Shown here: positions 3,331-41,285 of the stretch, in pieces | Position numbering within the stretch: the stretch's first letter is position 1 | Layout of the letters: every line of letters begins with the position of its first letter | Virus record (IMG/VR): IMGVR_UViG_3300021426_000084 | Source of the DNA: a virus | Taxonomy: Duplodnaviria; Heunggongvirae; Uroviricota; Caudoviricetes | DNA: 64,000 nucleotides | Strand: one strand, 5' to 3' | Program-made: the position numbers and the translations under genes | Notes under the pieces: model-generated | What the model was told of the DNA's origin: nothing | Database searches by the model: none | Seen by the model: the letters and a program-made list of their open reading frames with translations, nothing else

Positions 3331-3894
3331 ATGTTTGATGAATCCAAACTCAAGTTTGACCACTTCGTTGCTCTGACGGGAGCAGGCTGCAGCAAAGCAT
3401 CCGGTATCCCCACATTCGAGGAAGTCGACGGTTTGAAGCAGAAGCTTACCGTTGACTACAAGAAGTCAGAGCCGGAAAAGTTCAAGGCTGCTATGGAAGC
3501 GCTTAAAGCTTCTGTAAGAGACAAAGAGCCGAACGATGCGCATCTTGCTCTTGTAGAATATAATGTCCCCATCATTACTATGAATGTTGATGGCCTGCAC
3601 CAGAAAGCCGGCAGTAAGGTAGTTTATGAACTTCACGGTTCTGCAGCCGAAGATAACATCGTTCTTTACGGCGAAAATGTTCATTGTTATGATGAAGCTT
3701 ACGACCTCTTAAATGCCAACGTCGGGACACCAGATAATCATGTGTGCTTACTGATTATTGGTACATCCATGCAGACGCAGCTGGCAAATGAATTGAAATG
3801 GCACGCCATGACGTTCTGCAATATGTATGTCAAGACCATCAGTGAAGACGCAGAACATAAGGTTCGTGAGTTTTTGGAAAAGCATCATGTATAA
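3331..3894 (+). CDS. compact Sir2-family (sirtuin-like) NAD-binding protein
   Basis: GAGCSKASGIPTF (GAGIS-x-SGIP-F-like), LHGS and GTS motifs; no Zn-ribbon module; 187 aa. Confidence 0.55.
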   Translation: MFDESKLKFDHFVALTGAGCSKASGIPTFEEVDGLKQKLTVDYKKSEPEKFKAAMEALKASVRDKEPNDAHLALVEYNVPIITMNVDGLHQKAGSKVVYELHGSAAEDNIVLYGENVHCYDEAYDLLNANVGTPDNHVCLLIIGTSMQTQLANELKWHAMTFCNMYVKTISEDAEHKVREFLEKHHV

Positions 3895-3934
3895 AAATTA
3901 AGAAAATCAGATACAATTTAAGAAAGGAAAACAC

Positions 3935-4120
3935 ATGTTAGACGTATTAAGTGGATTAAAGAGGCTAACGTATCGTATACAGCCTATATCTCATATTCAG
4001 AAGAGAGAAAAGCGAAAGAAGCAACAGGAAGACCGCAAAACATATCACGAAGTCCAGAACTATATCAGCAAAATCCGGAAGGACATGGGATATAGCGATG
4101 GTGGAGAATGGCAGGCATAA
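3935..4120 (+). CDS. small basic hypothetical protein
   Basis: 61-aa ORF with SD aagaaagga. Confidence 0.4.
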   Translation: MLDVLSGLKRLTYRIQPISHIQKREKRKKQQEDRKTYHEVQNYISKIRKDMGYSDGGEWQA

Positions 4121-4145
4121 GCTAAAAAGAAAGGAATTTTCTATC

Positions 4146-4859
4146 ATGCAGAAAGAAGTCACTAGGAATGAGGCCATAGCATTGATAACTGCCGCAGTCG
4201 GTGCAGTTTACAGCGAATGTTTTGGGGAAAAGAAACATAAGCTTAGCAACTACGTTAGGCGGGCGGCAACGGTTGCCGGCCAGATAAGAAACACGGAAGA
4301 GAAAAGCCAATATATTCTTAGCCAAATGACCGAACTCAATTCTGAAATCGGAGAGCTGAGCTCGGAAGCACAACAAGTGCTTGCCATTTTTGATACTATG
4401 GTAAGTATGAGCAGTGTAGAGACTGAAGAATTGTGGGCGCGCATCAGGGATCTTGAGCAAAGAAATGATTCTAAGACCAGGGTTATTGAAGCCAATAACA
4501 ATCTTCAGAAGCGATTGGAAGTAGCACAGAGGGCACTGGGTGAGCTGCAAATCAAGCATGCGAAACTCCAGCAATCCTACAACACAATGGATAAAAATTT
4601 CCGCAGCAATGCGAATAAACTCATCGAACGAGTCAAAGAGGTTAACCAACTCAAAGAAAAGATGTCTAAGAGCAGCGTAAGAAGCTTAAAAAAAGAGCTG
4701 GAGGCTGCCAAATCAGAAATCTGCCGACTCCAGTGCAAGGTGGGTTCCGAAGACTGGGCACGCAGAGAATGGAAACGCAAATACGCAGAGCTTCTGCAGA
4801 AATATAAGGAACTGTCAAAAACAAGCGGCTTAACAGGCCGCAAAAGAAAAGCAGCGTAA
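4146..4859 (+). CDS. coiled-coil hypothetical protein
   Basis: long heptad-rich ORF; ATG 4146 after aaagaaagga. Confidence 0.55.
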   Translation: MQKEVTRNEAIALITAAVGAVYSECFGEKKHKLSNYVRRAATVAGQIRNTEEKSQYILSQMTELNSEIGELSSEAQQVLAIFDTMVSMSSVETEELWARIRDLEQRNDSKTRVIEANNNLQKRLEVAQRALGELQIKHAKLQQSYNTMDKNFRSNANKLIERVKEVNQLKEKMSKSSVRSLKKELEAAKSEICRLQCKVGSEDWARREWKRKYAELLQKYKELSKTSGLTGRKRKAA

Positions 4860-4909
4860 CCCCAACGAATGTTTTTGTAGGGGGTGAAAAAGAAAGGAAG
4901 TTGATTTAG

Positions 4910-5272
4910 ATGAAGTATGTAGTTAGAACGATGGAACGTCCGTACAGTGGTGGAGAATTTAAGTTGTACACCCGTCAGATGAACAGAGAGAAGTTTAATC
5001 TGATGATTAATATGCGCGGCTTTCACATTACACCGGAATATAGCGAGACAATTGTTGATAAAAATGGCAATCCGGCATTTATGCAGTACGGAATGACCTT
5101 TAACAGCAGCCTTCGGCACACGGCCTGCCGCGTAGTATCTATTGAACTGGACAATCAGCTCATTTACCAGTACGGTAATGAAGCTACCAAGTTTGTAGAT
5201 GAGATATTTAATAACGAACTTAGTATGCTCTGCAACATCAAGAAAGAGAAGGAGCAGGAGGCAGCAGCATGA
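4910..5272 (+). CDS. hypothetical protein
   Basis: 120-aa ORF with SD gaaaggaag. Confidence 0.55.
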   Translation: MKYVVRTMERPYSGGEFKLYTRQMNREKFNLMINMRGFHITPEYSETIVDKNGNPAFMQYGMTFNSSLRHTACRVVSIELDNQLIYQYGNEATKFVDEIFNNELSMLCNIKKEKEQEAAA

Positions 5273-17240: not shown

Positions 17241-17681
17241 TTGGACATCAATATTAACAACTTAAAGAAATATGATACCGAACATGCTAAAGCGGGCGAT
17301 ATGCTGATTTCAGCTTATCGTTCCAGCTATAGCAGCCGTTGGGCCTTTAGTCAACATATCATTAAATCTGTATCTGATAAACGCGGCGACATTACGTTTG
17401 ATAATGGAAAACGGTTTGATCGCCAAGGACGGAGATACGGCAGACAAAGGTACGATACCAGTAATGATGTGCTGCTGGAGGTCAATGAGGATAATGTGAT
17501 AGAGATTAACGCCTATGCAAAACATCAGTCTTTGGTGTTTAAGACACGTAAGGCCCTGGAGGCTCTACTCAAAAATGGATGCAGCCGGTTAGACGATATG
17601 CCAACAGAAAAGATTGAGCAATTCTATGAAGTGGTAAAAGATTTTGCAGGAGGGGAATCAAATGAACTATTGGAGTGCTAA
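17241..17681 (+). CDS. hypothetical protein
   Basis: TTG start after aaggaaaagga. Confidence 0.45.
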   Translation: MDININNLKKYDTEHAKAGDMLISAYRSSYSSRWAFSQHIIKSVSDKRGDITFDNGKRFDRQGRRYGRQRYDTSNDVLLEVNEDNVIEINAYAKHQSLVFKTRKALEALLKNGCSRLDDMPTEKIEQFYEVVKDFAGGESNELLEC

Positions 17682-18420
17682 GCAGCAAAATGCCGAACGT
17701 GCCAGACGGCGCACAGAGGAATTCGAAGCGAACTTTACGCCGTCAATGAACTATGCGTTGGTCAGCACTACCGTATATGGCGGCAAAGACCAGAATGTCA
17801 TCGGCAACCCATTTACCGATATCTGTGAAGAATTTGAAGTGGTACAGATGTCTACGGCCGAAGCCATTTATGAGCTAGGGAATAACAACTGCATTGCTCT
17901 GAATTTCGCGTCATATAAAAATCCGGGCGGCGCGTACCTGAATGGCAGCTGCGCGCAGGAAGAATCTTTGTGTCACGAAAGCTGGTTGTATAACATTTTG
18001 GCTCGATTCCAGAGCTATTATGACTGGAACAAAAAGAATCTGAATCGCGGCTTATATAAAGACCGCGCTCTTTACACGCCGGATGTATATTTTAGCGACG
18101 GCGAAAGAAATGCCATAGCTGACATTCTTACCTGCGCTGCCCCGAATCGCAGTATCATTGTCAAAGGATACACCAACTTTACGGAGGAAGAGAACTATAA
18201 AGTTCTGCATGACCGTATGCTGTTCATGTCCAAGATTTGTTCTTTGAAAAAGAAGGACACACTTATTCTCGGCGCATGGGGATGCGGCGTGTTTAAACAG
18301 GACCCGAAAATTGTGGCAAGACTCATTCGCAATACTACATGGCGCGGCGTAAAGAAAATCGTACTGGCTGTCATTGATAAGCCAACGTATGAAGTATTCA
18401 AGAAAGTTTTTGAGGAATAA
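17662..18420 (+). CDS. PARG-like macrodomain protein (DUF2263/TIGR02452-type ADP-ribose hydrolase fold)
   Basis: NFASYKNPGGAYLNGSCAQEESLCHESWLY matches the bacterial-type PARG signature (G-G..QEE..C(R/H).S.LY); ATG 17662 after gcaggagggg. Confidence 0.6.
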   Translation: MNYWSAKQQNAERARRRTEEFEANFTPSMNYALVSTTVYGGKDQNVIGNPFTDICEEFEVVQMSTAEAIYELGNNNCIALNFASYKNPGGAYLNGSCAQEESLCHESWLYNILARFQSYYDWNKKNLNRGLYKDRALYTPDVYFSDGERNAIADILTCAAPNRSIIVKGYTNFTEEENYKVLHDRMLFMSKICSLKKKDTLILGAWGCGVFKQDPKIVARLIRNTTWRGVKKIVLAVIDKPTYEVFKKVFEE

Positions 18421-18437: not shown

Positions 18438-19706
18438 GTGGCAGATATTCTATTGAAGAGTTTCTTTGAAAAATCGCGGTGGGAATCTGCCATTGATACG
18501 GGCGTAGCTAAACGTCTGGACAGATGCATGCTGAAAGAAATGTGTACTAAAGAAGGGCGCCTTGACCTTTACCATCGCATTCGTGATAACAAGTATTACA
18601 TCCGCCCACCGCATGAAGCACTTATCCCCAAGGATAACGGGGAATTTCGAACGGTTTACGTTAACGAAAATGAAGACCGAATTATCCTGTCCATCATCAA
18701 TGACATGCTGTTCGACCTGTATCCACAGAAAGTACATCCGGCCTGCCGTTCTTACCAGAAAGGTATCGGATGCGGCAAGATAGTGCAGGAGGCATCCAAA
18801 GTCCTGGCCGGTATTCATAGCAGCATCGTAGGCTACAAGGTTGACCTTAGTAAGTATTTCGACTCTGTACCTCGCCAGTATATCGATGAAGTATTTGATG
18901 ATGTCGAAAGTAAATTCGGCGCATCCAAAATCATCGATATCCTGCGTGAGTATTATCATACGGATATGGTATATAATCTGCAGAAAAAGCTGATTGAAAA
19001 ATACTCAAGCTTAAGACAGGGATGTGCCGTGGCCGCATATCTTGCCGATGCCGTTCTTTATGACATTGACGATTGCTTATCCAAAATGCCGGGTATTTAC
19101 TACGTCCGTTACTCCGACGACATTCTTATCCTGGGTGAACAAAACAGAACCGGAAAAGCCTTTGACAAACTCAGTGAACTTCTGACGCAGAAAGAGCTGA
19201 AGCTAAATCCAAAGAAGGTGGAAGTCCTGCAAAAAGACCGCTGGTTTAAGTTCCTGGGTTTCACACTGAAGGAAAATCATATCAGCCTGTCTAAGTCACG
19301 AATTAAGAGATTCCAAAAGGCAATTGATGAGCATACATTCAAAGGCAAGTCAAGGAATGAATACCAGCTGGTCAAGAATGTGTTCCGCGCCTTATATCAG
19401 GGCGAAGATGATTACAGTTGGGGAACTAGCGTATTGCCCATCATTAATGTTCAGAAGGACATCGATACCCTGAATTCTTATGTCATGGATGCTATTCGGG
19501 CGGCCATAACCGGGAAAACCCGTATTGGCGGCCTTGGCGTCACAATAAATCAAAGAGATTGTACTATTGCCAGAGGCAAGGGGCGTAACGTTAAGATGAA
19601 TCGGATAAAAAATCCTGTATTGGAATCTTATCTGAGTATCGGTTGCATGCGTAATGCCCTTCTAACTTCGAAAGAGGCTTATTTGACTTTGGCTATGTCA
19701 ATCTGA
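18438..19706 (+). CDS. reverse transcriptase (free-standing, group-II-intron-like/unclassified lineage)
   Basis: RT motifs 1-7: IPKDNGEFRTV, SYQKGIG, GYKVDLSKYFDSV, LRQGCAVAAYLAD, YYVRYSDDILIL (YxDD), LNPKKVEV, FKFLGF; about 110-aa thumb-like C-terminus; GTG start after aggaggg. Confidence 0.85.
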   Translation: MADILLKSFFEKSRWESAIDTGVAKRLDRCMLKEMCTKEGRLDLYHRIRDNKYYIRPPHEALIPKDNGEFRTVYVNENEDRIILSIINDMLFDLYPQKVHPACRSYQKGIGCGKIVQEASKVLAGIHSSIVGYKVDLSKYFDSVPRQYIDEVFDDVESKFGASKIIDILREYYHTDMVYNLQKKLIEKYSSLRQGCAVAAYLADAVLYDIDDCLSKMPGIYYVRYSDDILILGEQNRTGKAFDKLSELLTQKELKLNPKKVEVLQKDRWFKFLGFTLKENHISLSKSRIKRFQKAIDEHTFKGKSRNEYQLVKNVFRALYQGEDDYSWGTSVLPIINVQKDIDTLNSYVMDAIRAAITGKTRIGGLGVTINQRDCTIARGKGRNVKMNRIKNPVLESYLSIGCMRNALLTSKEAYLTLAMSI

Positions 19707-25930: not shown

Positions 25931-26407
25931 CTGCTTAGTAACTGAAAACGTACTCAGGTATGTAAAAATGTGTAGCAATATGCTAAAGACTCAAGAAATC
26001 CATTGAGTTAGTTCGTGCTGACTTTATAGCAGTCGGAATGGCTGGAAATAAACCAGAGGCGGTTGAAACAGTCCGTCTAACTACGGGATAGCACCCTGAT
26101 GGTAGCCGTTGGACAGTGGTAAATGCGAGAACCAAGCAAAGGCTGGCGAGCCTAAACGCAAAACAATATCACGAAAGGAGAAAGCTACTAGATGTAATCG
26201 GCAGAATATCATAAACAAGATACTGTCGATATGTACCGATGGCTAGTCGGGAATTTACGTCTTCGGAGTATCACACAAACGTTAGTAGCCTGTCTTTCGG
26301 GACGGCGAGAACGGATACGATGAACAAGGAACTACAAATCGTGAGATTGTAGCGATACATCTTGATATAGGCATATTTGTCTATATTTTAAGTAGCAGTA
26401 ACTGCCG

Positions 26408-27043: not shown

Positions 27044-27205
27044 AGCCGCCTATTCGGCGGTAAACATGATATTCCAAATTCATAGATTTCTAAGCCGCCT
27101 ATCCGGCGGGAAAAAGGAACCACCAATTTGATAGATTTCTAAGCCACCTACTCGGCGGTAAACAAAACCAAGAAAAATATAAATTTCTAAGCCGCCTATG
27201 CGGCG
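27044..27205. repeat. four direct repeats of a 16-bp GC hairpin (gccRcctaYNcggcgg) at exact 49-bp spacing; copies 2-4 share the 5' flank atttctaa
   Basis: copies at 27044, 27093, 27142 and 27190; AT-rich variable spacers of about 25 bp. Confidence 0.7.
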
Positions 27206-27319
27206 GTGAACTGGAATATCATGATATAATGATATCAGAAATTTTTTTCTTTGTCTAGCAGGAGTCTTAAAGGATATGCTAGAATAAAGAAAGAAGATTG
27301 TGTAAAAGGGGGATTAATT

Positions 27320-29777: not shown

Positions 29778-29815
29778 GAAGGAAAAAATTTTCAACTTCT
29801 TACATATTTTCTCTT
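29773..29815 (+). terminator. rho-independent terminator
   Basis: tgtaagaag/cttcttaca stem followed by a T-rich run. Confidence 0.6.
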
Positions 29816-30364: not shown

Positions 30365-31018
30365 ATTTAATATTAACAAACAGAAAACTATGGCAAAGCA
30401 TACCTCGGTTATAAAACGCAATATCATGCGTCCGAGAATGGCCCCGTAATTGATACTGACAAACTGCAGTAGATATGCCTGCAGCGAGTACGTCCTTTCT
30501 TAGCGATAAGAGTAGGGTGATGCGTAAAGTGTAAGCGCATGTATCTTGAGGTTATGTGCATGCAATGCCGAGCGTTAAAGCAGGAACTGATAGGGTTTCA
30601 TAAGTGTATGAGTACAAATGGTGTGCTCCGCTGCCGCCAGTAAAGACTAAAGCGTGATAAACTTTAGGTACACGAGGTATTTATCAAGATGGAACTTTGC
30701 CGTGATGTCTTCAAAAGAGACTATAACTGTCAGTCGCCGTATGAGTAGCCCAAGGCAATGATACAGATCAAGTATGTAGCTTTATAGCAATCTATAATTC
30801 TGAATGACGGGTGAAAGTTGGAAGTCTTAATCTTCTCGGAGCTAGAAAGAGGCAAGAAGCGCGTGTCGACGGGCGCGTTGCTCAGACTTGTCTTCTCCGT
30901 GGCTGAATAAATGCAGAGCATCAAGTTGTGTACAGGGAAACCTGATGTTTTGCCGTAGTTTTGTGTTTGTTAATAACACAACTAAAAATGCGCCCAAGCG
31001 GCGCGGTTACAATTTTGT

Positions 31019-32513: not shown

Positions 32514-33140
32514 ATGAACAATTGTCTTAAAAAGGAAATTATCTGCAGCTATAAACCTGGCGATTGGTTCGATAGGATTCCACTTGCGCATCTTTGCGAC
32601 GGCGGTATAACAGCAATCAATGTAGACCGCCGTTTTGGAAAGTCCACATTCGTCGCCAATGCAGCCAAAAAGATTTTGTCGCAAGATATGGCTGACATCA
32701 TTGTTGTTGAGTGTGGCGGCAAAAACAGAATAAAACTCATGAAAACGGTCTTTAAGGAAGTTTTCGGCGATAATTTCGAAAAACAGTACCCGCAGATTGA
32801 GATAAGGCCTCATGGCAATAGAGCACTAAGTAAGCGGCGTACAGTAATATTTATTGATGAATTTTCGTATACGGCAACCGACGATGACATCCATGAAATT
32901 CTGAAAAGCGAGCTCATCAGCGATGCACAAACCTGGATTCTTCTGGATACTTCTTATGAAGGTTCAACCGATATGAAAGACAAGAATCCGTTCGCTGGCT
33001 TACTAGAAATGCCCTTCGTAAGAACCTACGAAGTGGTTGGTCGCATTCCTGAAGAATGTCTCGCTTATTATAGCGATGAACAGCAGCAAGCGATTAAAAA
33101 GCGTCAAGAAGCATTTCATCTCCAGTGTTTCATGTTTTAA
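32514..33140 (+). CDS. P-loop NTPase-like protein
   Basis: Walker A-like VDRRFGKSTF and Walker B-like VIFIDEF. Confidence 0.5.
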   Translation: MNNCLKKEIICSYKPGDWFDRIPLAHLCDGGITAINVDRRFGKSTFVANAAKKILSQDMADIIVVECGGKNRIKLMKTVFKEVFGDNFEKQYPQIEIRPHGNRALSKRRTVIFIDEFSYTATDDDIHEILKSELISDAQTWILLDTSYEGSTDMKDKNPFAGLLEMPFVRTYEVVGRIPEECLAYYSDEQQQAIKKRQEAFHLQCFMF

Positions 33141-33223
33141 ACAAATCCCCCTCCATGTGACCGGCTAGGACGAGGCCATAGAATATCGTCCACTTTATTA
33201 AAATTCTGTTATAGGAGAGAAAA

Positions 33224-33451
33224 ATGACAGTATATATGGTTATTCACCAAACTTTGTGCGATGATTATGACCAGGACGTTATGGGTGTTTTTTCAAACGC
33301 CGAAGCCGCCCAGGCGTGCTATGACGACTGGATTAATGAATACGGCCTTGAGGGTTGTGACAATGGCGCGTATTACAATGATGGTGAACATCGCTTAGAA
33401 ATTCACTCATATAAAATTGAGGAAACTTACGAGCGAGATTCAGATTTTTAA
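33224..33451 (+). CDS. small acidic hypothetical protein
   Basis: 75-aa ORF with SD aggagagaaaa. Confidence 0.45.
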   Translation: MTVYMVIHQTLCDDYDQDVMGVFSNAEAAQACYDDWINEYGLEGCDNGAYYNDGEHRLEIHSYKIEETYERDSDF

Positions 33452-34102
33452 ATTTTGCGACCGACACTAATGTCGGCCATAAAACATGCGTGACCTGACT
33501 GCTGGTTGCCAAGAGAACCATGCAGCGAATAAAGAATGCGAAGAAGACTGACGTCATTCATCGCAAGCCTCGGAGAGCCCTGAAAGAAACTTGGCCTGTG
33601 GCAGAAATCTCCAATGAGGACACCGTAAACGCAAAATGAATTACGGTACAATCCGGCCCTAGAGAACAAGCCGGATAGACGCAAAGACCCTTACGGGTCT
33701 GAAAGATTATAGGAATAAGTGGGTCATCACCAAACCACCTATAACTGACGTTAGGCGCAGCGGAAAGACAAGTGCGATAGATGGTATGCCCAAGCCGAAT
33801 AAAAGTGAGGTCGTTCCTTATCGGAGCGAAGAAAAGTAGAGGCTTAGTCAGCACGGCGACAATGCAAAGAAAAGTTCGTGTAAAGCCGCGTTGTAAAATC
33901 AAAAGATTCAGCCCAGACCAGGCTCATAGCAGGAGGGGTTGACGCGCAATAATGACTTCATACCTTCTGGTATGGTCGCTGGACAAGGAAAAGTCTAAAA
34001 ACCCGGCACGAGAGAGGCTACACCGATGCTGAGTAGCTGAGCTGTTTGAGACGAGCAGTCATCCCGTGACGGCAGGATGTAAAATGAAGCCGCCCCTATA
34101 AT

Positions 34103-34185
34103 GAGGCAGTAGCTTAAATGGCTAGAGCAGACGGGAAAGCAAATGGGGCTTTCTTATGATGGTGGTTCGACTCCTCCCTGCCTCC
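34103..34185 (+). other. tRNA-like element (perfect acceptor pair, D- and T-arms, non-canonical anticodon region)
   Basis: gaggcag...ctgcctc acceptor pair; T-loop ttcgact; the middle 33 nt does not form a standard anticodon arm. Confidence 0.4.
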
Positions 34186-34198
34186 CCTATATCATACA

Positions 34199-34269
34199 TC
34201 CCCAAAGCTCCTCCGGCAGGGCTCGTAAGGCTACGGCCTGCGGCGAAGGTTCGAATCCTTCTTGGGGAT
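34199..34269 (+). other. tRNA-like element (acceptor pair plus T-arm, no canonical D/anticodon arms)
   Basis: tccccaa...ttgggga; gaagg-ttcgaat-ccttc. Confidence 0.35.
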
Positions 34270-35996
34270 ATCATGCTCATAGTCTGGGGGACACCGGCCG
34301 GTAGACAGGTTCGATTCCTGTAATGGGCAAAAACAAAATGCTTTCACGGAAAGTGTGCTCACCGCGAAAGAAGTTTTAGCCGCAGCAGACCGCACACCCT
34401 GGTAAATACGGCAAAAACGATGTTTCCCGATATCAAAGAATCGGGCATCAATGACTGTGGATGCGTATAAATAGACAGTCAGCTTGAGTCACCGTGGACC
34501 CCGGATACCCCAAAAGGAGTATGCCGGCTAACGCCTAGCCGAAATGGCGGGCGGCCCTGTGGGGCGCGATCCACGACACAAAAGCTTTCCTGCAGGCGGT
34601 GGGTTAACCTAGCGTATAGAAGGGGCTCCATTACCCCTGAGACAAAAGTCTCGAAGAGATGACCATTGAAGAAGGGTCTCCATTAACCCTGGCTGTAACC
34701 AGAATAGGCCAACCGTGTTTTCGGGCTCGCATCGTTATGAGCGTCCCGATTACCCGGCGCCAACAGCCGAAGAGATGACCTTTATCGGAGCGTTCGCTAT
34801 CGGACAATTACTGGGGAAGTAAGAACTAAAGGCCACGGTTTTTAGCACCCAGAATAACGACGCGAAGGCATTCCTTTCGGTGGAGGTATACCGAAGAACA
34901 ATATGAAACCTGGGCCGTCCCGATAACGCCATAAAGTACAAATGGTAGCTCGGTCAAACGGTAGCAAGGTTGCACCAAGCGTACCTGGATTACCTTCGCC
35001 TGGACGGACTAAAGTACACGGTCTATCAATTTAAGGGCGATAACAGGCACGAAGGCGATTTAGCCCCGGACAAGGCGAAAAACTGTTTAGTAGGCACCGA
35101 TTACTACTTAATAAGACAGTCGGGAACAGTGAAGACTCACTCTAAACAGGCTAGATGAGCATGGGTATCGCCCATGCCGAAGTTATCGGCCACTTCGCTG
35201 AAGACGACCGATGTGTTTGCGGGACGACCGCAACTGGGAGTGCATCCTCTCAGGATAAACCTGCAGAAGATACCTGTCCGAAACAGGATAGGGAAACCGG
35301 TGGCCAAGGCAATAATCCGGTAAACACCGATATATGTAGGACTCCCCTGCGGGGCGAGTAAGTTCATCGGTGGCCGCAAAAAGAAAACATCTCATAAGCG
35401 AGAGTCCGGTCATGAAAGCTAATCCCTTTCAGGCTCTCCCGATGCTGCTTATCTTTTCGGGCATTAAAAACACCAGACCTCGTAAGCGAAGACAGAGAGG
35501 ACGCTCTCGTTCAAATCGGTGAAGCTTGCCATCACCTATGTACAAAAAGCCTTGCCATGTAGAGCGAGCATGATGCTGCTGTAGAGTAGGTCGGGCATCA
35601 AAGATTTTAGACCTCGTAAGCAAAGACAGAGGAAACGTCCTCGTTCAAATCGGTATGAAGCTTACCCCAGATGACGGGCATTTGCCAAAGCTTGGATGGG
35701 TTAATCCGACATAGCGCTGCTACACTTCGGGCGCTAAATTAATCACACAACTGCTTGTATAAGTGCGTGTATGACTGCCGTGGAGGGGCTGCGCGTGATG
35801 GGAGAGGTTCTGCCTGATAGTGACCAAAAGAGTTCAACTACCGTGAGTCCCACGGGGAAACAACAAGCCCTGTACCTTACGAAACAGGCATGGCGCCGCT
35901 TTATGATAGTTGTTCGGGCGCTAAAAACCTGCACTGGCAACTTCATCTTTCATTGTCAGTAAAAGCGTTTGATAACCCGACCCGAAAGGGTCATAT

Positions 35997-36399
35997 GGGG
36001 CTGTAAAGGTTTCGACAGGATATTGAAGCCGTAAGATTCGCAGGCCGATGGTTATGAAGCCTAACTCATTAACCGCTAAATTCAACTGACGAAGCTGAAT
36101 ATCGTCTCGCTGCCTAATCTGCCTTAACGGTAGATTGGTTAGCCCCTATCGTATCACTAGCTGTGAGCAGGGCGATAGGTTTCAAATAAACACAGCAAAA
36201 CGTCAGGAGGCCCGCTCGACGTAAACAACACGGGGAGTTTTCCTGCTTTCTCAAAAGCAGGTGGTGGAGGTGTAGACCATTGCATCGTTGTTCGGCTGGT
36301 TACACCCTAGAGAATGGCGCTCTTAAAAATGCCTATTGCGATAATGTCTTACAGGTGGATGTATTTTGGACAGGAGTTCGATTCTCCTCAGCTCCACCA
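35997..36399 (+). ncRNA. ssrA: tmRNA (ssrA)
   Basis: 5' ggggctgtaaaggtttcgacagg and 3' ggacaggagttcgattctcctcagctccacca match tmRNA tRNA-like domain consensus; internal tag frame ends ...DEAEYRLAA-TAA. Confidence 0.8.
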
Positions 36400-36582
36400 T
36401 CGTTTCAACGAGGTTAGCGTCTCGAAGAAGCGGATTGAGAAGCTAAAATCAGCCATATCGGCTGATTGAAGTAAATCTGTGATTCTGCAGAATCTCTGGA
36501 AGCTTGCGCCAGACTTGGAATACAGCAAGACAGGTTTACTTCAGTGAACCGATATGGAAAGTAAAAATAGGGGGTACATATC

Positions 36583-39860: not shown

Positions 39861-39953
39861 GGGAGATTGGACCTGGATTGGAGCCAGGGCAGCATTTAGC
39901 GCTGCGCAGGGTACGCGCCCTCAACGTAAGTTCGAATCTTACATCTCCCGCCA
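39861..39953 (+). tRNA. type II tRNA (93 nt), anticodon loop ATTTAGC (apparent UUA or UAG; unresolved)
   Basis: acceptor gggagat/atctccc, T-arm gtaag-ttcgaat-cttac, long variable arm, CCA encoded. Confidence 0.5.
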
Positions 39954-40169: not shown

Positions 40170-40246
40170 GCGCCACTTAGCTTAACAGGAAGAGCCTATG
40201 GGTCTAGCTCATAGAGATTCTGGTTCAAATCCAGAGGGGCGCACCA
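40170..40246 (+). tRNA. type I tRNA with apparent CUA anticodon (amber-suppressor-like)
   Basis: acceptor gcgccac/ggggcgc (one mismatch), D gctt/gagc, anticodon stem tatgg/tcata with loop gtCTAgc, T-arm tctgg-ttcaaat-ccaga, ACCA. Confidence 0.5.
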
Positions 40247-40621: not shown

Positions 40622-41285
40622 TAATGGAACAGGCAAGGCGAAAGTCTTGTAAGTTCCTCTCCTTTTCTAAACCAATGAACTACAAAAACAGCGAGTGTCC
40701 TGAACTTCGGTTCAGGCGCCCGTAGAGCCCTTAATGAAGGTTGAGGGTTGTACGGGCGAAAGCCCGACCAAGAATATTACAATAACTGCGCGGGGACAGT
40801 ATAACAGCCCTGTAGTGCTTCGGTGGTCTGTGCACGAAAGAAATACAGCCTTCCACTTATGAGGGGTCGTTGAGAGGTGGGCGCATCGTCGTCGTAGGTT
40901 CGAACCCTACCGTCCCTCATCTATTATGGCAGCGTTGGCTATATCGGGTATCTGGTTGCAAACGGATACTTTGATGAATGGGTGGGCCAATGAAACTGGA
41001 AGAGGTTGCAAACTCCGAAGGGTACGCGGGTTCAACTCCCGCCGCTGTCTCTATCATGTCAGTGTCGGCATAATGGTAATGCCAGGGCCGCAAGCCTGAT
41101 ATGCGGGTTCAACTCCCGCCGCTGACCGTATACGTAAAGTCATGTGACTTGTCATTCTTTCCGAGGGTTATCAAGACTCAAACAAGAAACCCTTCGCAAC
41201 ATTTCAAGCTTTGGCTGGCGTCTGTCTTACGACAGGAACACTGGAGGCAAAGCTAGGGGCAGTTGGCAACAGCTGCTCCGGTACT

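Follow-up and report, generated by a model that had tools for sequence, protein, structure and literature searches.

What does a phage keep in 2.5 kb of DNA that holds no open reading frame (ORF) and adjoins genes for structured RNAs? The question is raised by positions 33452-35996 of a 64,000-nt stretch of Caudoviricetes DNA (IMG/VR record IMGVR_UViG_3300021426_000084), the whole of which is called the window here. This block lies between a phage cluster of transfer RNA (tRNA) genes with a ROOL RNA and a transfer-messenger RNA (tmRNA) gene (35997-36399; Rfam 91.3 bits; tag DEAEYRLAA by ARAGORN), which starts exactly where the block ends. An earlier note, made from the letters of the window alone, had taken the block as a single unit; its coordinates were essentially right, the block end being the exact start of the tmRNA gene. 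The feature is real and is more organised than the note supposed, namely a clade-specific cassette island of new structured RNAs, one of them large. What was found is a non-coding array of separable, structurally constrained modules with a delimiter hairpin that is specific to the block and to one strand. We think it likely that the block is a one-orientation island of no fewer than six structured RNAs that fold independently and are described in no library: module M1, a trio of tRNA-like units, U5 (with or without U7) of 0.7-1 kb, two copies of U8, and U9.

Structured modules and the hairpin between them

The absence of ORFs from the block was borne out. The longest stop-free run overlapping 33452-35996 has 121 codons and lies on the minus strand, and no frame spanning the block was opened by readthrough of TGA, TAG, TAA, or TAA and TAG together. 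The period-3 signal of the block is 1.03 versus 7-24 in three single genes of the window, and its GC content, first estimated at about 50%, was measured as 0.48-0.53 versus approximately 0.37-0.43 in the coding flanks. When the ORFs carried as cassettes by relatives were compared with the block by tblastn, no similarity was obtained. The open frame, the periodicity and the protein similarity by which a coding gene or pseudogene is recognised are thus all missing, and both alternative genetic codes and a frameshifted coding remnant, the explanation that the earlier note had set against its own, were rejected on these grounds.

Four IMG/VR contigs of 147-236 kb were found as relatives by an exact pattern from a duplicated element of the block, and further contigs were reached through the flanking proteins of 212 and 185 amino acids (aa) in JGI, ENA and Logan assemblies; a metagenome scan with the 212-aa protein added one long and four short contigs. 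Seven sequence types were distinguished: A, the window; B, L016/L005; C, L012; D, L006/L004; E, L018; F, L025; and G, L031, while L026 and L019 cover M1 only. Structures were read from alignments of the types (A2 for M1, A3 for U5, A4 for U7, A5 for U8 and A7 for U9), with RNAalifold used for U5. Compensatory changes were compared with those in 500 column shuffles and with those obtained after sliding the partners by 1-3 columns, controls that were run for M1, U5 and U7 only. Rfam 15 was scanned at gathering thresholds and at E<=10, with the whole block and with its sub-regions.

M1 (33487-33680, on the + strand like all modules, hairpins and units described below) is predicted to be an RNA of about 190 nt whose structure has hairpins H1-H5 and in which a 5' GCGY pairs with RCGC in the loop of H4. 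Over seven types 97.4% of the cells are paired and 8 compensatory pairs were counted, compared with 2.5±1.1 in shuffled alignments (0/500) and 0-3 with slid partners; one of the 8 joins the 5' GCGY to the RCGC of the hairpin loop. The folding z-score of M1 is -4.9, and the module is 97% identical between the window and type C, the value for the adjacent ORF DNA being 69.5%. Two other details of M1 deserve mention. The H1 loop GCCAAG is complementary to a nearby invariant CUUGGC and might form a pseudoknot with it. At 33580-33605, the two N positions of GCCC[N]GAAAGAAACTTGGCC[N]GTGG covary as identical bases (T/T, C/C or A/A) in different phages, a behaviour that is not explained by Watson-Crick pairing or by any helix.

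The largest module, U5 (34417-35115), is a structured domain of about 700 nt that consists partly of internal paralogous repeats (34621-34720 versus 34740-34843). Its prediction comprises 142 pairs, with 96.5% of the cells paired over six types, and 25 compensatory pairs were observed versus 12.9±2.3 after shuffling (0/500) and 0-2 after sliding. Two U5 hairpins (34933 and 35011) have the loop UAAAGUACA in common; the words GAGATGACC and CCRATTAMCC are not enriched in the window as a whole and are relevant only within the internal repeats. U7 (35216-35437), a structured domain of about 200 nt, has 54 predicted pairs and 10 compensatory ones versus 5.5±1.4 shuffled (4/500) and 0-2 slid. Between both domains the window has a hairpin-rich insertion, U6 (35116-35215), which is absent from types B-G. 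U5 and U7 may form one RNA of approximately 1 kb, because none of the delimiter hairpins described below separates them. With covariation above both controls, M1, U5 and U7 appear to be structured RNAs whose structure is under selection, in agreement with one of the readings first offered for the block, and some covariation was also found in U8 and U9.

The tandem duplication of an element of about 100 nt, reported in the earlier note, is real: 35457-35520 and 35591-35654 are 81% identical over 64 nt, and the pattern GATGCTG..CGGGCAT occurs twice in the window versus 0 in 100 shuffles. The repeated element is actually a small RNA, U8, preceded by a recurrent hairpin. The first copy of about 100 nt, U8a (35472-35568), has a GTAAGC/GCTTAC stem around a covarying hairpin, and the second, U8b (35606-35709), carries an extra downstream hairpin. 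Compensatory changes were seen in 9 of the 28 pairs of U8, a count for which no control was run. Two copies are present in types B and G and in the window, and one in types C-F. U9 (35742-35888) is a cassette of about 150 nt found only in types B, C and G and in the window, and its stem CCGTGG/CCACGG becomes CTGCGG/CCGCAG in type C.

The recurrent hairpin, which we call the P-hairpin, has the consensus CAU-RRYGC-UGCU...UCGG-GCRYY-AAAA, a length of 32-40 nt and a loop of approximately 9-21 nt. In 12 copies its 5-bp stem is 100% paired, with three of the five pairs varying on both sides (GAUGC/GCAUC, AGCGC/GCGCU, AGUGC/GCACU and GGUGC/GCACC). A covariance model, R1, retrieved 21 copies from 152 kb of window and relatives, all of them on the + strand and within homologues of the block. 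In the 3' half of the block the cargo RNAs are separated by P3 (35438-35471; R1 39.2 bits), P4 (35569-35605; 42.9 bits), P5 (35710-35741; 38.2 bits) and P6 (35889-35928; 47.4 bits). The cassette boundaries tested coincide with P copies, namely those of the U8 duplication, of U9 with P6, of an ORF insertion in type C, and of a copy, P0, that precedes U5 in types B, D, E and F. U9 and P6 are missing in types D-F; there P5 is fused to the 3' flank of P6, which places the breakpoints of this gain or loss inside P copies.

Comparison of the types shows how much of the block can come and go. M1 is missing in type F. The spacer U2 (33681-33950; folding z-score -2.3) is specific to the window and has no homologue in any fetched relative; at this place, between M1 and the leader U3 (33685-33951), types B and C carry ORF cassettes coding for 188 and 106 aa, or for 92, 128, 119 and 99 aa. 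In type C a minus-strand ORF of 171 aa with an HExxH motif is inserted between 35470 and 35475, that is, between P3 and U8. The spacer 34330-34416, where types B, D, E and F have P0, is also window-specific, so that U2, this spacer and U6 make up the window-only segments. The leader before the tmRNA gene (35929-35996) follows P6, and 35913-35976 is conserved in all six relatives that cover it (types B-G). The tmRNA gene itself behaves as one further cassette, the segment 35976-36448 being precisely missing from types C, E and F. All types have the conserved modules in the same order. As judged from these comparisons, the block is a mosaic of independent separable modules, a cassette array and not one RNA. 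The structured content seen by the earlier note thus stands, while its treatment as one unit gives way to separable RNA cassettes divided by a repeated hairpin.

With regard to the ORF cassettes at the U2 position (L005 9456-10332; L012 12006-13151), the 188-aa protein gives a near-threshold match to Tox-MPTase4 (E 2e-5) and is followed by a small partner ORF; a partner of 99 or 106 aa is common to both cassette-bearing types. The Tox-MPTase4-like ORF and its small partner may be a toxin-immunity pair.

The modules appear to be known only from one narrow phage clade. By blastn, the block had no match among 50,697 GenBank phage records, and IMG/VR scans for exact patterns (the U8 pattern, an 18-mer of U5 and the P-hairpin pattern) returned the same clade and one chance match, L027. 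In GTDB genomes a first M1 pattern gave no match and a second one only chance matches of about 22 nt. No island stands beside the 185-aa neighbour gene in more distant phages; in one of them, L029, an IS605-type pair (3667-5186) of a Y1 transposase and a TnpB/Cas12f-like ORF lies about 1.3 kb downstream of the homologue of that gene.

Three tRNA-like units

Between M1 and U5 the block carries three tRNA-like units in tandem (34103-34329), preceded by the conserved leader U3 (33951-34102). This leader holds CTGGACAAGGAAAAGTCTAAAAACCC (33979-34004), a GATGCTG...CAGTCATC hairpin and, just before unit 1, CCCCTATAATG. Its 3' part (33982/33984 onward) aligns in types B, C, D, F and G and in contig L020, and 33951-34003 aligns in type E; in types B and C the motif CTGGACAAGGAAAAGTCTAAAAACCC occurs twice, flanking their ORF cassettes.

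The tRNA-like units proposed in the earlier note at 34103-34185 and 34199-34269, with acceptor stems of 7 bp, T-loops and aberrant anticodon regions, were recovered by folding, and the T-arm it had placed at about 34300-34330 was located at 34305-34321, within unit 3. Unit 1 (34103-34185) has an intact acceptor stem, D-arm and T-arm, and scores 37.1 bits with the Rfam tRNA model (RF00005, gathering score 29), with no call by ARAGORN. In place of the 15-nt anticodon arm it has 24 nt, with an "anticodon" stem of 8-10 bp and a loop, AAAUGGG, lacking U33. Unit 2 (34199-34269) is a cloverleaf with the 7-bp acceptor TCCCCAA/TTGGGGA, a T-arm and an "anticodon" arm capped by a UACG tetraloop. Unit 3 (34274-34329) has the 7-bp acceptor TGCTCAT/ATGGGCA, its T-arm and a short middle part without anticodon arm. 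Neither the Rfam tRNA model nor ARAGORN matched units 2 and 3. All three units possess a 7-bp acceptor and a T-arm whose T-loop is of the GTTCRAnYC type, and none has the 5-bp anticodon stem with a 7-nt loop, U33 and an anticodon. On their predicted folds they are unable to decode.

The trio is 90-93% identical across relatives, versus 62-78% identity of the 212-aa neighbour protein. Across types its variable pairs change through G-U, in the + sense, or by a compensatory change: the T-stem of unit 1 goes from GGTGG/CCTCC to GGCGG/CCGCC in types C and G (U-A to C-G), and one-sided changes in unit 2 keep the pairing through G-U. The middle part of unit 3 has a 17-nt insertion in types B and G. 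Type E has unit 1 and a different second unit only, with unit 3 absent, and type F has other T-arm elements. Since the trio is among the best conserved parts of the block and its changes preserve pairing, the units are most simply read as maintained tRNA-like elements and not as decaying genes. Of the label "degenerate tRNAs" given earlier, the lack of a usable anticodon loop holds, while degeneracy does not fit the 90-93% identity and the preserved pairs.

A -10-like string was noticed before each unit (34090-34102, 34186-34198 and 34270-34273), namely CCCCTATAATG, CCTATATCATACA and ATATCA. The variants CATAAT and TATGAT retain A at position 2 and T at position 6 of TATAAT, and no -35 partner was found.

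Processing, competing explanations and the surrounding window

The following sequence of events would account for the layout. Long + strand precursors would include the island and the RNA genes next to it. Within the block, no match to a sigma-70-type promoter exceeds 9 of 12 on the + strand, which also lacks an intrinsic terminator, and strong sigma-70-type matches lie upstream at 29814 and 31990, which argues for co-transcription from there; for want of promoters and terminators in the block, we infer that the trio is embedded in a longer transcript. The + strand is suggested by the T-loops, by the G-U pairs in the trio and in the P stems, and by the direction in which all neighbouring genes point. 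The tRNA-like units would be cut by the RNase P and RNase Z of the host, which also cleave tRNAs and the tRNA-like end of tmRNA, and the P-hairpins might be additional sites of processing or shield 3' ends. As DNA, the same hairpins would be short repeats through which cassettes were duplicated, lost or exchanged. The mature RNAs would most likely serve a phage programme centred on tRNAs and translation, as is suspected for ROOL and GOLLD; this role is suggested by the company they keep, i.e. tRNAs, tmRNA and ROOL. A bolder proposal, which we put forward tentatively, is that U5, alone or with U7 (about 1 kb, bounded by P-hairpins), represents a new class of giant ornate phage RNA doing a job of the ROOL/GOLLD type, and that the P-hairpin array is a dedicated processing and exchange system for RNA cassettes by which jumbo phages assemble and swap ROOL, tmRNA, tRNA-like units, M1, U8 and U9.

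Several points weigh against an island of independent + strand RNAs. The alignments contain only 6-7 sequence types that are 72-98% identical, and few independent changes lie behind some compensatory counts. Long-range pairing, by which the ends of U5 would be set or U5 joined to U7, is either invariant or differs from one alignment to another. In a balanced strand test, with pairs predicted on both strands, G-U exceeded A-C by only 22 to 14, which is weak, and the minus strand of M1 folds at least as well as the + strand. The P-hairpin lacks a U-tract and resembles no nuclease site known, and the P copy that precedes U5 in other types is absent from the window. Finally, transcription, strand and processing sites are all inferred.

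Among the alternatives, one, named already in the earlier note, is compatible with the array architecture: the RNAs could be decoys against host defence, the anticodon-less mimics and perhaps other modules soaking up nucleases that target tRNAs, or RNA-sensing immunity. Phage tRNAs can counter tRNA-cleaving defences, and the trio keeps acceptor stems and T-arms apparently under selection without a usable anticodon loop, in a window with many tRNAs, suppressor-like ones included, and a CRISPR-repeat mini-array that is a likely counter-defence element at the RNA level. However, anticodon nucleases usually recognise the anticodon loop, which is precisely what the trio lacks, and M1, U5, U7, U8 and U9 are left unexplained. 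We therefore regard the decoy function as unlikely.

Somewhat poorer is the case for a single giant structured RNA covering the whole 2.5 kb, or at least 34417-35996, with the indels as peripheral expansion segments. The collinearity of the modules, the lack of an internal promoter or terminator and the conservation of predicted long-range helices (34489-97 with 35053-61, and 34596-600 with 35373-77) would all suit it. But in relatives protein genes stand between parts of the block, the one between P3 and U8 in type C being antisense, and this is hard to reconcile with one functional RNA of 2.5 kb; moreover, tmRNA, M1 and the trio come and go independently, and no long-range helix linking modules covaries consistently. 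Such a molecule seems improbable to us.

Very little probability is given to an element acting as DNA, be it an origin of replication, a site for packaging or a hot spot of recombination with repeated hairpins. Repeated short hairpins and motifs, missing ORFs, turnover of cassettes at repeats and the weak strand test would be expected of it, but binding sites on DNA do not require dozens of helix-preserving compensatory changes over about 1.5 kb, nor would it account for tRNA-like cloverleaves with T-loops, for a block that abuts a tmRNA gene or for the G-U pairs tolerated in P-hairpin stems and in the trio. Hardly any credit is due to decaying tRNA genes with neutral junk in a tRNA region: the aberrant anticodon arms and the window-specific segments (U2, 34330-34416 and U6) agree with decay, whereas conservation of the trio and of M1 is above that of the flanking genes and covariation exceeds both controls. 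A coding region hidden by stop reassignment or frameshifts, for which the tRNAs with tta and cta anticodons might speak, is practically negligible in view of the closed frames under every recoding, the flat period-3 signal and the lack of tblastn similarity to the cassette ORFs.

The island of structured RNAs belongs to a zone rich in RNA genes, at about 29.8-42.6 kb of the window, with 12 tRNAs (ARAGORN), ROOL and tmRNA; the + strand carries these and every long ORF of the window. The ROOL RNA (RF03087) is full-length (30380-30963, + strand; Rfam 216 bits) and lies between tRNAs, 3.5 kb upstream in the window. It is present in type B and in L026, and none was found within 10 kb in types C and D, so that it behaves as an optional cassette like the modules of the block. 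A 334-kb contig encodes a protein 100% identical to the upstream 212-aa protein, and the DNA ligase of the window has only about 32% identity to that of any GenBank phage; the source is therefore taken to be an uncultured jumbo phage. The 212-aa protein matches no Pfam or PHROG family. The structure predicted for it, a single generic RecA-like P-loop domain, weakly resembles PhoH2 and domain 1 of DEAD-box proteins, a hint at best of an RNA-related ATPase activity.

Other elements were seen elsewhere in the window. A RAGATH-18 RNA (66 bits) lies at 26260-26331. Two tRNAs called by ARAGORN at 39861-39953 and 40170-40246 have the ochre- and amber-suppressor-like anticodons tta and cta; relatives have them too, and the ORFs of the window read normally in the standard code despite these tRNAs. 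In the second tRNA cluster, 41058-41127 gives a weak tRNA match (37.5 bits, no ARAGORN call) and may be another tRNA-like element. On the minus strand, 27050-27215 contains four tandem repeats like those of type I-F CRISPR (GTTCACCGCCGCATAGGCGGCTTAGAAA and variants; Rfam CRISPR-DR4, 46 bits), about 20-24 nt apart, antisense to all genes and with no cas gene in view. They may be a mini-array of the RNA anti-CRISPR kind, and hint at a host with a type I-F system. A reverse transcriptase ORF of 422 aa (18438-19706, + strand; RVT_1, E 6.7e-25) directly follows a microbial PARG-like macro-domain ORF (17644-18420).

Bacteria and phages rarely have large structured RNAs whose function is unknown, and study of the few described so far (ROOL, GOLLD and OLE) has been rewarding. 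The present locus offers several new structured-RNA candidates at once, from a phage that also has a true ROOL and a tmRNA, and natural variants in which single modules are added or removed provide separately testable units. It is also a concrete case for asking why phages put ornate RNAs beside tRNA genes.

Likeness to known RNAs and arrays

The family search suggested in the earlier note, now run with Rfam 15 at E<=10, matched nothing in the block and adjoining gene other than tRNA-like unit 1 and the tmRNA. The ROOL and GOLLD models gave no match in 33100-36500 or in 34330-35480 at E<=10, in the same scan that gave the genuine ROOL 216 bits. No match at E<=10 was obtained with the models for group I introns, group II introns or RNase P RNA, so that the self-splicing intron remnants first considered are not borne out. 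RNase P RNA had also been considered from strings noticed in the block, a CR-I-like AGGAAAAGUCU (33986, isolated) and CR-V-like ones; it was rejected, as their order is wrong, one of them falls in the non-conserved U2 and the model does not match. The block thus appears to be a member of no family tested, and what it resembles is ornate phage RNAs near tRNAs combined with tRNA-like punctuation.

ROOL and GOLLD, of about 0.6-0.8 kb, are like U5 and U7 in being large, highly structured and non-coding, and typically occur in phages and close to tRNA genes (PMC5737381). ROOL further shares with the modules of the block its presence in some relatives and absence from others. In contrast to ROOL and GOLLD, U5 and U7 have no match in sequence or structure at E<=10, U5 consists partly of internal repeats, and both occur in one narrow clade. 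ROOL and GOLLD form multimeric cages (PMC12286853).

As in CRISPR and other repeat-delimited arrays, a short hairpin in one orientation stands between unrelated cargo in the P-hairpin array, and units are gained, lost or duplicated at the repeats. A CRISPR array has constant repeats and short similar spacers. The P-hairpin, in contrast, has a variable loop, its intervals of about 100-1000 nt hold structured cargo conserved between phages instead of spacers of about 32 nt, and no cas-like nuclease is linked to it.

Some phage tRNA clusters also encode small stable RNAs that are co-transcribed and co-processed with the tRNAs, as are the species 1 and 2 RNAs of the T4 tRNA region. Compared with that region the block is far larger (about 2.5 kb), with several RNAs of 100-1000 nt, a delimiter hairpin of its own and a tmRNA gene.

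The t-elements of plant mitochondria are tRNA-like structures with an acceptor stem and a T-arm and without decoding function, contained in longer transcripts, at which RNase P and RNase Z make RNA ends (PMC1920247). The trio has the same combination of acceptor stem and T-arm without decoding. It differs from t-elements in its setting, a bacterium and its phage, in the arrangement of three units in tandem instead of single ones at gene ends, and in that its cleavage is only presumed. By analogy, the trio and the block-specific delimiter hairpin suggest that this phage organises and processes a multi-RNA precursor in a way comparable to the tRNA punctuation of organelles.

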